Positions 53,177 through 58,618 of a stretch of DNA of 64,000 bases are shown here, piece after piece (position 1 is the stretch's first letter; each line of letters starts with the position of its first letter). The notes under the pieces are model-generated. The model was not told the DNA's origin. It ran no database searches and saw nothing but the letters and a program-made list of their open reading frames with translations. The position numbers and the translations under genes are program-made. Origin of the DNA: an uncultured Pseudomonadota bacterium (lineage in GTDB: Bacteria > Oederibacteriota > Muellerivitia > Muellerivitales > Muellerivitaceae). The stretch lies in the NCBI GenBank assembly GCA_963843375.1, contig CAWJKT010000009.1, positions 274,218-338,217 on the forward strand, given 5' to 3'.

Positions 53177-53377
53177 TTAGATTTTGCGGACGTTCTCGGC
53201 CTTCAAACCCTTTTGGCCTTGGGTGACTTCGAACTCAACCCGGTCACCTTCGTTGAGGGTCTTAAATCCATCCGATTGAATCGAGGAGAAGTGGACGAAT
53301 ACGTCCTCGCCTCCATCTTGGGAAATGAAACCAAAACCCTTCTCGTTCTTAAACCACTTCACAGTACCTTGTGCCAT
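53177..53377 (-). CDS. Cold-shock protein (CspA family)
   Basis: GTVKWF, KGFGFI, DVFVHFS. Confidence 0.97.
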
Positions 53378-54198: not shown

Positions 54199-54363
54199 AT
54201 GGATTACACTCCCGACGTCTTCAACAAAGACTGCCCTTCTCAAAATGTGTTGAACTGCGAGGCAGACCGCTGGGTCCCCCTGATCATCTGAAAACTGGGT
54301 AAGGGAAAAAAGGAATTGGGAACTCAAGCGGACCATAGGTAGCATCTCCCAAAAGATGCTCTG
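54199..54363 (+). pseudogene. HxlR-family winged-helix regulator remnant
   Basis: MDYTPDVFNKDCPSQNVL...DRWVPLII*KLGKG/ELKRTIGSISQKML with stop, frameshift and 3' truncation. Confidence 0.75.
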
Positions 54364-54622
54364 GGAGCGAATTTTCATAGGGTAGAAGCTGGCCTATAAA
54401 CGTTTTCGGTGGGAGTGATAAACGCTTCCATGTTTTTTAGGGCCTAAAAACATTTTTCTGGTGCCCGATAAAAGGGTTTTTAAAGAAACTTTAGACAATG
54501 TTCATTCGTCAAACTAATTAGGACGATTCTTTATTAATTTTATGGCTTTTTTCTCCTTGATTTTAACTGGCCAAGAATTCAATAATAAATTTGTCTTTAA
54601 AAGAAAAAGCAAGGTAGCGACG

Positions 54623-54949
54623 ATGCGTAAGAAGATCAAAATCTACTCCCAAATTCTAGCCATAGCCCTGTTACCTGCTTTTGTTATGAGGCCCGTTGTT
54701 GTGGCTGTCCATAACGGTTCAATCCATGCCGCTGACCAACAAGAAACCAAAGTTTTTCCAACTATTCCACAGGTACTTTCCGCGCCCCATTTGGCCCTTC
54801 GTAACATTGAAAGAGAAGCCCCAGATGTTACGGTTTTGGTCCCCCGGATTTCCAAAGTAAAGGCCACTTTGCTTTTGGAAAACCAATTAAGTTTTACTTC
54901 GGTCTCGGTCGTTACCTCTCCCAAGAGTTTCCTCGTACTTAGAATCTGA
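54623..54949 (+). CDS. 108-aa putative leader protein (N-terminal hydrophobic segment, C-terminal FLVLRI)
   Basis: AAGGT RBS-like sequence; MRKKIK followed by a hydrophobic stretch; first ORF of the cluster. Confidence 0.55.
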   Translation: MRKKIKIYSQILAIALLPAFVMRPVVVAVHNGSIHAADQQETKVFPTIPQVLSAPHLALRNIEREAPDVTVLVPRISKVKATLLLENQLSFTSVSVVTSPKSFLVLRI

Positions 54950-55054
54950 AAATTCCTTTCGTGTAATCCCCAGCCGGGTTTTTCTTTTACCCCGGTTGGT
55001 TATTCGCGCGTACTTTTAGCGCACGAAAATATCCTAACGAAAGGAAATTCAATG
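54947..55054 (+). promoter_or_regulatory. Putative SD-sequestering RNA structure
   Basis: TTCCTTTCGT (54953-62) is the exact reverse complement of ACGAAAGGAA (55037-46, the SD); TGAA (54947-50) pairs with TTCA (55048-51). Confidence 0.6.
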
Positions 55055-55483
55055 AAACGTGAAGAATTCTTATTAGGTGTCTCGATCTACACCTTGATCA
55101 TCTTGGCCGGTTTCTTCAGGCAAACCCTTCAAAAGCTTGAAAATAACCCCTTGGGCAAACCGTTTTATTCGCTTGCCCAGTATCATTTCCGGCCTTCGGT
55201 TCATCTATCCAACCAAAAGGATAAAAAACCTTTGCTGGATTCAAATTTTCGACAAATTTTTTCGTCTGACAGCGCTGTTTCTATCTCTGCCAAGACGCAA
55301 GATTCCATCCGGCATAACCTTGAGGAGAATTGGAAAAGGATGGCGTCCCATCCGGCGGGCTTGGGACAGGAAACCGAATCCAAAGTTGATATTCCTCCGC
55401 TTTTGGGTCGCAAGCCTGATCCGAAAGGGATGCCTGTTGTGGGTGGGAAGGCTTCCAATGGTGAAGAACCAACTAAAGGTTGA
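55052..55483 (+). CDS. Hypothetical protein with N-terminal TM anchor
   Basis: GAAAGGA RBS; single hydrophobic segment. Confidence 0.65.
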   Translation: MKREEFLLGVSIYTLIILAGFFRQTLQKLENNPLGKPFYSLAQYHFRPSVHLSNQKDKKPLLDSNFRQIFSSDSAVSISAKTQDSIRHNLEENWKRMASHPAGLGQETESKVDIPPLLGRKPDPKGMPVVGGKASNGEEPTKG

Positions 55484-56285: not shown

Positions 56286-56470
56286 GATCTAATCTCCCAA
56301 CTTAGGCCCGGCCCGCAGCACCGGGTCCTAGCCCGGCTCCCAAGGCCGGGCGAATACTCCATGTCCGGCTTCAAACGCCTGGGCTGGAAATAGTTGTCGG
56401 GAAAGGGGTCCGGCCCGCCTGCCCATGGGCCGGTTCTCTTTTCGTTTATATTTTAATTAAAGGAGTGGGT

Positions 56471-56653
56471 ATGAAAAAGTTGATCGCATCACTGGTGACG
56501 GTTTTTTTCCTGGTGGCGGTGTCAGGACCTGTATTTGCCGATAGTTCATCGCCAGCCAAGACGCCGGTTGCGAAATCGATGAAGAAAAAGAAGAAAAAGA
56601 CAAAGAAAAAAAGTAAGGCCATGAAGCCCAGTTCCACACCTATGGCCAAATAA
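56471..56653 (+). CDS. Small secreted Lys-rich protein (Asr-like architecture)
   Basis: AAGGAG RBS; signal peptide ending VFA; poly-Lys disordered mature part. Confidence 0.75.
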   Translation: MKKLIASLVTVFFLVAVSGPVFADSSSPAKTPVAKSMKKKKKKTKKKSKAMKPSSTPMAK

Positions 56654-57322: not shown

Positions 57323-57531
57323 ACTGTTTTGGGAGATGGATGGAAAGAGTCAAATGGCGTTGGGGGACAAACCCGTTTGGGCCTGGAAAGGGGAAGGGAG
57401 TTTCCTCTTTCCAGCCTTGACCTTTTTTGGACATAGTTTTTGGGACTTGGGAATTTTTTCTTTGTTACTTAAAAACCAAAGCCCTTATAAAACAAAGGTT
57501 GAATTTCAAACTCATTTTACCGGATGTTGTT

Positions 57532-58062
57532 ATGCGATTTTTAACATTGTTTTTGTGCTTTTGGGCCTTTTCGATGGGGTATGGAAAGGATTTAAGGGTA
57601 GCCACCGTGGACTTGCAGACTCTTTTTAAGGAGTATCCTGGCACCCTCCAGGCCCAGAAAAAGTTTGACGAGATGGCCCAGGAGAAAAAACAGGATTTGG
57701 CCGATTCGGAGGAATCGTTAATGGACCTCCAAAAAGAGTTAAACAACACTAAAAAGGCGATGTCCAAAAAAGAAAGAAGTCGAAAGGAGAAAGAGTTCGA
57801 GGAAGAAACACAGGACTATCAAAACGAAAAAAACACGATCCAAACCGAATTGGACGATAGGAACCAGGAAATGACGAGGTTGTTGATGGGTCAAATCAAA
57901 GAAGTGGTTGCTGGTATTGCCCAAAAAGAGGGTGTGGATCTGGTTTTGGATACCAATGATGCGGTTGCCACCAAATATCAAATGGATCTGACCGGCGAGG
58001 TTTTAAGATCTTTTGTCGAGTTGAAACCAGACCAAACGGATTTGGATTCAGATACCCCTTAG
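57532..58062 (+). CDS. OmpH/Skp periplasmic chaperone
   Basis: VATVD...YP, coiled coil, IAQKEGVDLVLD, DLTGEVL. Confidence 0.88.
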   Translation: MRFLTLFLCFWAFSMGYGKDLRVATVDLQTLFKEYPGTLQAQKKFDEMAQEKKQDLADSEESLMDLQKELNNTKKAMSKKERSRKEKEFEEETQDYQNEKNTIQTELDDRNQEMTRLLMGQIKEVVAGIAQKEGVDLVLDTNDAVATKYQMDLTGEVLRSFVELKPDQTDLDSDTP

Positions 58063-58135
58063 CCGGAAAGGGAAATCAGGGTTAAAGACCTTGTTTAACA
58101 TGTGGCCGGGAATGGTTCCAGGGCGGTTTAAGAAG

Positions 58136-58618
58136 ATGAAAAACTTTAAATTGTTGGGAAATTTGATTTTTTTAATGGGGCCAGTATTTTTAATAACCTT
58201 ACTTGTATGGGATCATAAATTCAAAGCCTCTTCCCCGGCAGAAGCAAAAATTACCACACGTCATTTCAAAAAAAGCGAGATTTTGAGGCAATTGAAATTA
58301 ACGGAAAATCAAAAGGATCGAATCCGCCAAATTCGAAGAGTCTATCGTAAGGAAAAAGCCGAAACCGATGCCCAATTCATGTTGGAAATGGTTGATTTGG
58401 AAAATGAAATTGAGAAACCGAACCCCAATATGAGCCGATTGGACTATTTATGCAAAAAAATCGGTCGATTGAAGGGCCTGAAGTTGAAAGAACAAATCTC
58501 CACGGATTTGGAATTAAAAAATGAAATTCTCACACCGCAACAGGCTGACCAATTGATGAATTTTCAGGAGAGCGTCCAAGTTTGGGGAATGGAAAAAAAT
58601 CCAGGAAACCCAGGATAA
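58136..58618 (+). CDS. Spy/CpxP-like periplasmic protein
   Basis: Two LTxxQ motifs (LTENQ, LTPQQ); N-terminal hydrophobic segment. Confidence 0.8.
   Translation: MKNFKLLGNLIFLMGPVFLITLLVWDHKFKASSPAEAKITTRHFKKSEILRQLKLTENQKDRIRQIRRVYRKEKAETDAQFMLEMVDLENEIEKPNPNMSRLDYLCKKIGRLKGLKLKEQISTDLELKNEILTPQQADQLMNFQESVQVWGMEKNPGNPG

Follow-up and report, generated by a model that had tools for sequence, protein, structure and literature searches.

A conserved leader ORF with an invariant C-terminal tail

We analysed a 64-kb stretch of DNA, referred to here as the window, from the genome of an uncultured soil bacterium (genome G000). Within it, a 108-residue open reading frame (ORF), ORF-A, precedes a row of small genes encoding ORF-B, ORF-C and LysM-, OmpA-, Skp- and Spy-like proteins (Table 1). 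ORF-A ends in Leu-Arg-Ile (LRI) immediately before its stop codon, and the RNA that starts at this stop pairs with the Shine-Dalgarno sequence (SD) and start region of ORF-B. The first-pass annotation had described this locus as a candidate leader-protein switch, and the positions that it assigned to ORF-A, to the anti-SD and SD strands, to the TGAA/TTCA extension and to the hairpin now called P2 are all confirmed. The observation is real and lies far beyond chance. We consider it very probable that translation of ORF-A controls ORF-B through unmasking of its SD, and we lean slightly towards the view that the LRI-stop tail programs a regulated ribosome pause.

Judged from sequence comparison, ORF-A is a real, conserved gene whose homologs align over their full length from its ATG. 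As a single query it found relatives in 11 of 61 related genomes, all within one taxonomic family, and a profile search gave matches in 19 of the 31 genomes of that family, which is the host's own. Extended across the phylum, the search found ORF-A relatives in 20 of the 30 remaining genomes of the family and in none of 68 genomes from the other 22 families. The profile search yielded 27 places of what we call family A (24 distinct and complete, 2 duplicates and 1 cut by a contig end), to which a locus search with a 6-sequence family-A alignment (5 loci) added none. Neither ORF-A nor ORF-B matches a Pfam or NCBIfam family. A protein-atlas feature search, whose recognition value for ORF-A was under the guide value and which serves as a lead only, placed unnamed clusters of ~100 residues from Acidobacteriota and Bacteroidota next to ORF-A (score 0.95). 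The source genome itself holds three family-A places, two of them one sequence on two contig ends; this identical cassette (G000:C5:149-463 and G000:C28:32675-32989, one at a contig end) probably reflects duplication in the assembly or a recently arisen repeat. Four family-A places are carried by genome G012. A sub-threshold match to the Rfam family gut-2 inside ORF-A (54776-54835, minus strand; 26.4 bits against a gathering threshold of 39.8, E 0.0027) is probably due to chance.

The N-terminus of ORF-A resembles a signal peptide by eye, with a basic n-region and a hydrophobic core followed by a V-x-A-like site; within it R23 is nearly invariant and P24 invariant in the family-A alignments. 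AlphaFold2, run with 36 sequences, modelled a helix at residues 2-21 only (mean predicted local distance difference test score 61.3, predicted template modelling score 0.20), a result in keeping with an unstructured chain behind a signal peptide, although shallow alignments often model poorly. Outside the signal region, strong conservation is confined to the tail: the invariant columns are M1, P24, L106, R107 and I108 in a 13-sequence alignment, and P24, L106, R107 and I108 in a 36-sequence alignment. The conserved terminal LRI and the divergent middle that the first-pass annotation had predicted for homologous leaders are thus both found. All 24 distinct complete genomic copies end in (V/I/P)LRI-stop, and no family-A member runs beyond LRI. 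Larger databases were covered by a word-indexed search of 5.8 billion proteins (22 matches, with the LRI end in 17 of the 17 examined) and by a profile search run exhaustively over 1.84 billion representatives (86 matches). Altogether 96 of 99 database relatives end in LRI; the others comprise one protein ending in LKI, one truncated before the tail and one spurious match of 3833 residues.

The tail recurs on a second leader family

Across the source genome, 21 of 29348 ORFs of at least 40 residues end in LRI. The LRI-ending ORFs at G000:C7:24675-25043 (minus strand) and G000:C10:144816-145166 (plus strand) are signal-bearing, Cys/His/Met-rich proteins of 116-122 residues, with a perfect anti-SD/SD helix behind each. 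They belong to a sibling family, A', which is present in 22 of the 31 family genomes (loci L067-L097) with lengths of 112-122 residues. Of its 23 places, one is a 25-residue fragment at the end of a contig and was set aside; the other 22 were analysed, and all of them end in LRI-stop. In the large database 31 of 34 family-A' proteins have the LRI end, and the remaining three span only 62-84% of the query. Family A' is marked by the signal motif 'ALTPCGxC', by invariant Cys and near-invariant Met in its mid-part and by a tail of the form SPPRGxLxLRI-stop, noted across the family as SPPxxxLxLRI-stop. Downstream lie heavy-metal efflux operons of the RND type, whose products are OEP/TolC-like, CusB/HlyD-like (carrying a domain that binds heavy metals) and AcrB/CusA-like.

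When the two families were compared by hhalign (21 A' sequences), only the last 18 columns aligned (probability 87.6%, E 3.5e-6), placing SPKSFLVLRI of family A against SPPRGLLALRI of family A'. Since the families are alike only in this tail and in their RNA layout, tail and helix behave as a module on different bodies.

Codon usage was compared at the 46 loci of both families together (24 of family A and 22 of family A'). The Leu of the tail is encoded by CTT at 5 loci, CTC at 13, CTA at 9 and TTA at 19; the Arg by AGA (28), AGG (3), CGA (6), CGC (8) and CGG (1); and the Ile by ATC (36) and ATT (10), followed by TGA (34), TAA (11) or TAG (1). The variation of synonymous and stop codons indicates that selection acts on the peptide and the directly adjoining stop, not on an RNA motif.

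One further ORF of the source genome, at G000:C12:2007-2363 (plus strand), is a signal-bearing protein of 118 residues that ends in PIPLRI-TGA and has P2/P3-like hairpins and HPr-like genes downstream. No anti-SD match to the next SD was found there; this could be a cassette that has degenerated or is wired in another way.

The stop codon and the following nucleotides pair with the SD of ORF-B

In the minimum free energy (MFE) fold of 54930-55070, the spacer between ORF-A and ORF-B forms a three-way junction in which helix P1 encloses the hairpins P2 and P3. This fold has an energy of -39.0 kcal/mol, where shuffled sequences average -26.45 (standard deviation 3.4; z -3.69), and none of 200 shuffles was as good. 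P1 is the helix that the first-pass annotation had described: TTCCTTTCGT, downstream of the ORF-A stop, is the exact complement of ACGAAAGGAA, which holds the SD of ORF-B, and TGAA at 54947-50 extends the pairing onto TTCA beside the ORF-B ATG. A mutually exclusive partner for the anti-SD had also been suggested. That pairing exists in the window, where TTTCGTGT (54957-64) can form seven Watson-Crick pairs and one G-U pair with GCACGAAA (55021-28), but it is conserved only in a CGAAA core that is itself the base of P3.

RNAalifold over all 21 spacers was abandoned without a consensus because MAFFT could not hold P1 in register, and we relied instead on a core group of 11 family-A sequences and on per-locus duplex folding. 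In the core group P1 is conserved rather than covarying, and P2 shows few compensatory changes (2 of 7 pairs). P3 (TTCGCGCG...CGCNCGAA), a small GC hairpin that immediately precedes the SD strand, hardly changes its sequence within the core group, where 6 of its 8 pairs are constant, and several family-A' spacers have, by eye, a similar small GC hairpin in the same position.

In per-locus MFE folds, the stretch at or after the stop pairs with the SD region in 23 of 24 family-A loci (the exception being L010) and in 19 of 22 family-A' loci. Among 769 same-strand spacers of the source genome used as background, 240 also pair both of their ends in the MFE fold; this measure is therefore unspecific, and we used duplex energy instead, computed between the stop plus 20 nucleotides (nt) and the 24 nt before the start plus the start codon. 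Background duplexes average -7.8 kcal/mol (standard deviation 3.6) and reach -14 or better in 44 of the 769 spacers. The window locus has a duplex of -16.0 kcal/mol, while -14 or better is reached by 16 of 24 family-A loci (20 of 24 reach -12 or better) and by 14 of 22 family-A' loci. The strongest background duplexes were considered as further leaders and rejected, as they involved crude ORF calls and wrong-frame ORFs in GC-rich stretches.

Pairing between the two strands is kept as their sequences change, as had been expected from the first reading of the locus. Cognate strands average -14.8 kcal/mol and non-cognate strands -11.7, with 0 of 20000 permutations as good, a significance that is overstated, since the loci are related and hence not independent of one another. 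Read by eye, the duplexes include at least nine different sequences of the helix. At the position 4 nt upstream of the SD GG, 16 loci have a C-G pair and 16 a U-A pair, and 5 nt downstream of it there are 15 C-G and 11 A-U pairs; these pair types come from per-sequence energy optimisation and are thus paired by construction.

A subgroup of family A' (L071, L074, L075, L077 and L081; tail DTSPPKPLVLRI) has long spacers of 119-165 nt. Here and at L010, LRI-stop is kept and the direct duplex is weak or absent, and the control structure of these loci, if there is one, must differ.

The position of the helix relative to the stop is fixed within narrow limits. At all 41 loci with a duplex of -10 kcal/mol or better, pairing begins within -3 to +4 nt of the stop codon's end. 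With Ile in its P site and the stop in its A site, a ribosome covers ~10 nt beyond the stop, so that at ORF-A it would cover most of the anti-SD. When this footprint was masked in the window, the unpaired probability of the SD-to-start stretch rose from 0.20 to 0.48.

A switch made of RNA only, in which the junction serves as a riboswitch, thermosensor or protein-binding leader independently of ORF-A translation, could draw on the stable and well-defined junction, on the near-invariance of P3 (6 of 8 pairs in the core group) and on a nearby gene for a cold-shock protein (53177-53377, minus strand). We nevertheless regard it as very unlikely. The spacer matches no family in an Rfam 15 scan of 54300-55300; the interior hairpins vary in number and sequence across distant A and A' loci, with only P1 and its place at the stop codon kept; and such a switch leaves the invariant tail and the fixed distance from stop to helix unexplained.

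The ~100 nt of untranslated spacer behind a leader ORF would also suit a transcriptional mechanism, as proposed for CruR and TnaC, in which the ribosome at the ORF-A stop governs Rho-dependent or intrinsic termination in the spacer. CruR, a relative of CutF, is reported to act through Rho (PMC9973294). At our locus, no terminator-like site was scored in 54950-55050, P2 is not followed by a T-run and was rejected as an intrinsic terminator on that scoring, and the conserved pairing is specifically with the SD. The spacer is moreover almost fully structured, and structured RNA is unfavourable for Rho loading. These observations make control of termination extremely unlikely.

An envelope operon behind a putative ECF-type promoter

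Upstream of ORF-A lies a motif with 17 nt between GAAAC and CGTC that resembles the promoter consensus of extracytoplasmic function (ECF) sigma factors. Of the 24 family-A loci, 15 (the window and L002, L016, L004, L003, L006, L008, L005, L009, L043, L033, L034, L036, L038 and L040) have the pattern [ACG]AAC[CT]TT-N14-17-CGTC in the 250 nt upstream of ORF-A; none of 22 family-A' loci has it, and among 20000 random 250-nt stretches of the genome 46 contain it (0.23%). Its 84 matches genome-wide may outline an ECF regulon. Among 9 runs listed, no RNA data set covering the sequence was found. Among ten tested genes upstream of ORF-A, five encode ribosomal protein S1 and two MutS; these are unrelated housekeeping genes, so ORF-A heads its own unit. 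The S1 gene, with six S1 domains, is on the same strand and directly upstream of ORF-A at L050, L056, L060, L062 and L064.

Table 1. Features of the ORF-A locus (coordinates refer to the window)
Feature	Position	Strand	Details
ECF-sigma-type promoter-like motif	54485..54510	+	GAAACTTT 54485-92, 14-nt gap, CGTC 54507-10
ORF-A, leader protein, 108 aa	54623..54949 including stop	+	ATG 54623, TGA 54947-49
Signal-peptide-like N-terminus, ~aa 1-28	54623..54706	+	MRKKIK basic, 12-residue hydrophobic core, RPVVVxA; judged by eye
C-terminal module SPKSFLVLRI + TGA	54917..54949	+	L106, R107, I108 invariant
P1 5' strand: stop TGA(A) + anti-SD TTCCTTTCGT	54947..54962	+	TTCCTTTCGT at 54953-62
P2 hairpin, 9 bp, 12-nt loop	54970..54999	+	54970-78 with 54991-99
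P3 hairpin, TTCG.CGCG ... CGCA.CGAA	55003..55027	+	from the fold and the 11-sequence core group
P1 3' strand: ACGAAAGGAA (ORF-B SD) + TTCA by ATG	55037..55051	+	ACGAAAGGAA 55037-46, TTCA 55048-51
ORF-B, 143 aa, N-terminal membrane-like segment	55052..55483	+	no family; first downstream gene, proposed to be gated; ATG at 55052
ORF-C, 103 aa	55506..55817	+	no known family; own SD AAAGGAGGGG
LysM-like protein, 143 aa	55854..56285	+	PF01476, E 7e-4, 19.9 bits, under cut-off 20.9
OmpA-family protein, 169 aa	56813..57322	+	PF00691, E 1.1e-18; recurs in related operons
Skp/OmpH-like periplasmic chaperone	57427..58062	+	PF03938, E 2.2e-23
LTXXQ / Spy-CpxP-like protein	58091..58618	+	PF07813 weak, E 1.1e-3, 20.1 bits, under cut-off 24.3

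With single-sequence queries, ORF-B was found directly downstream of ORF-A relatives in G000:C28, G001, G010 and G021, with weaker matches at L007 and L008, and the LysM-like counterparts at related loci exceed the PF01476 cut-off. In the window a CLC channel gene follows the Spy-like gene. A 62-residue ORF at 56465-56653 (plus strand) begins with a signal-like stretch and closes with a lysine-rich tail (a K run); it is a candidate that stands between the LysM-like gene and the OmpA-like one and overlaps longer ORFs on the opposite strand. Related loci repeat the order B-C-LysM-OmpA, followed by Skp/Spy-like genes, MarR or a TPR protein of ~1000 residues, the last of which is present in many family-A operons. 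Other family-A cassettes precede genes for HPr-like and AHSA1 proteins, AHSA1 and GGDEF proteins, or YdjC-like and PMT_2 proteins. At L048 (G012:C7:170500-189500) three tandem cassettes stand within ~10 kb, each before a different small operon (HPr-like with AHSA1/SRPBCC; AHSA1 with GGDEF; and unknown genes with a zf-HC2 anti-sigma-like gene and AHSA1), and the near-identical fourth family-A copy of this genome is on G012:C12.

Relation to known stalling leaders

The closest known system is CutF-cutO, followed by the SecM, VemP and MifM monitors and by arrest peptides that consist of a motif and a stop. As described in the published accounts, CutF of Rhodobacter capsulatus combines a Sec signal, a sensor motif and a C-terminal stalling motif with a stem-loop masking the SD of cutO, and CutF-like or DUF2946 proteins are widespread before metal genes (PMC9973294; bioRxiv 10.1101/2025.02.05.636593). 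In that system the downstream gene is controlled by the leader's translation and export. ORF-A resembles CutF in being small, in the conserved motif at its very C-terminal end and in the stem-loop that follows it and covers the SD of the next gene, and its signal-like N-terminus may be a putative Sec-type signal as well. The protein-atlas search also placed it near clusters named DUF2946 or CzcI (0.92-0.93), again as a lead only. Unlike CutF, it has no Cys at all, and neither the 13- nor the 36-sequence alignment has a conserved Cys or His column. Its tail, TSPKSFLVLRI, has a single Pro and no Pro-Pro, and ends in LRI-stop where the account of CutF gives PPPRL-stop. The genes downstream encode envelope proteins, not proteins of metal homeostasis. 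ORF-A also differs from CutF in having no DUF2946 match in Pfam; at E<=10 none was found for ORF-A or the two source-genome A' proteins, nor for any of 21 aligned A' members.

Family A' stands nearer to this system. Like the CutF-like, CruR and CzcI leaders, it carries Cys/His motifs, has a PP within the tail and neighbours metal-efflux genes, and by these features, not by the Pfam model, it fits the rules given for CutF, among which a PP within the last 15 residues serves as a filter (PMC9973294). The PP of A' lies 9 codons before the stop, and a ribosome stalled there would therefore be too far away to reach the helix.

SecM, VemP, MifM, ApcA, ApdA and ApdP share a downstream SD that is sequestered by a helix and opened by a stalled ribosome (PMC7897499; PMC10987492). 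The SecM/MifM/VemP-type model of the first-pass annotation is supported in its SD-masking layout, while the nearest published relative proves to be CutF. The monitors have an N-terminal export or insertion signal, to which the signal-like N-terminus of ORF-A may correspond, and share with ORF-A a spacer, a conserved C-terminal motif and a masked downstream SD. ORF-A differs from them in that no Sec or YidC component is encoded downstream, no RAPP/RAGP-like motif is present, the candidate stall is at the stop codon, and ~85 nt with two hairpins separate the P1 strands. A study from 2024 by Fujiwara et al. describes exported upstream ORFs, ahead of sec and yidC genes, whose conserved motif of 3-4 residues adjoins a stop codon that arrest requires in vitro: NSP-stop, NAP-stop and DGMK-stop (PMC10987492). 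ORF-A likewise has a short conserved motif immediately 5' of its stop, a candidate for arrest; it differs from the peptides listed there in its motif, LRI, in its downstream genes and in its lineage.

In TnaC and SpeFL the nascent chain holds the ribosome with a stop codon in the A site, as is proposed for ORF-A. Both are short and cytoplasmic, respond to a small molecule within the tunnel and work by way of Rho, unlike ORF-A, a 108-residue signal-bearing protein with an SD-masking helix. To our knowledge, only a handful of exported proteins report on the world beyond the cytoplasm by stalling their own ribosomes (SecM, VemP, MifM and CutF, together with a few ORFs upstream of sec and yidC), and almost all of them use proline-containing motifs. 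Family A would work like the CutF and monitor systems, yet it is not a member of either class, because the metal motif, the PP, the Pfam match and a Sec/YidC gene downstream are all lacking. New here are the non-proline tail next to the stop, the Cys-free putative sensor body and the envelope operon under a probable ECF-type promoter.

Programmed pause or plain coupling

The main rival explanation is plain coupling, in which each ribosome that terminates on ORF-A briefly opens P1 without a programmed pause, and LRI serves the mature protein as a degron or as a ligand for a PDZ-type protease or a TPR protein. A helix that starts at the stop would give coupling without arrest, and the ~1000-residue TPR protein of many family-A operons belongs to a class of domains that can bind C-terminal peptides. 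CutF, for its part, is described in the source as rapidly degraded once exported (PMC9973294). This explanation has to contend with the reuse of the same tail and RNA layout on the unrelated A' body, and with a tail that alone, the signal region aside, is strongly conserved in a protein without a predicted fold. L, R and I are almost completely invariant across ~97 clusters that share 20-50% overall identity, and C-terminal ligands and degrons are usually less strict than that. We hold plain coupling to be possible and rather unlikely.

Several observations weigh against a tail that programs a pause and a helix that it opens. LRI is kept at 5 of the 46 loci that have no clear anti-SD/SD duplex (L010, L071, L075, L077 and L081), which also favours plain coupling, and the tail can therefore outlast the helix as modelled. 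Formal covariation is weak in the core group, where 3 of 24 pairs change on both sides and the covariation score is 0.138 against 0.117 for shuffled alignments (19 of 500 shuffles as high; 91.6% of cells paired). The modelled ribosome mask gives only a moderate rise in accessibility, with a family-A mean of 0.29 without and 0.46 with the mask. LRI is no known stalling motif, and LRI-stop or FRI-stop was not found as an arrest motif in the literature searched, the supplementary tables of the CutF and Fujiwara papers, which could list related clusters, lying outside that scope; among the papers listed that name the lineage FCPU426, all are on ecology or are surveys. A free hydrophobic C-terminus could, finally, be a degron or a binding ligand.

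A model for the proposed switch

The anatomy of the locus, its conservation, the peptide-level selection on the tail, the reuse of tail and helix on a second body and the gene contexts are shown. We propose that ORF-A would act as an exported sensor-leader protein. P1 would close the three-way junction by joining the stop and the next ~16 nt to the SD and start region of ORF-B; because it masks this region, the operon of B, C and the LysM-, OmpA-, Skp- and Spy-like genes would be translationally off on naked mRNA. A ribosome at the last codon or stop of ORF-A would cover and melt the 5' strand of P1 and free the SD. Within the exit tunnel and the peptidyl-transferase centre, the tail ~SPxxxLxLRI-stop may delay termination or the final steps of elongation and thereby prolong the 'open' time, and the state of the exported N-terminal part (Sec pulling, or an encounter in the envelope) may set how long the ribosome dwells. 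For export, the pause itself, the thing sensed and the sign of the response, this model gives what we infer from the features of the locus. Transcription would probably start from the ECF-type envelope-stress promoter, giving two layers of control.

A wider reading, which we put forward tentatively and hold less likely than not to be correct in full, is that (V/I)(L/F)RI-stop is a portable, proline-free, stop-dependent arrest module, joined with a post-stop anti-SD to different exported sensor bodies, and that it represents a new class of trans-membrane translational sensor reaching beyond FCPU426. Under this reading the Cys/His/Met-rich body would serve metal efflux, and the Cys-free body would report envelope or export status to a chaperone/OmpA/LysM operon with an ECF-sigma promoter.

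What sets this system apart is an invariant non-proline tripeptide with its stop, kept in ~100 sequence clusters and on two unrelated sensor bodies, with a helix that sits exactly at the position of the terminating ribosome. If the pause is true, LRI-stop would be a new stalling sequence for structural work on the ribosome, such switches would be modular, and, beyond metal control and the machinery of secretion, their reach would take in a general operon for envelope stress in an uncultured phylum.

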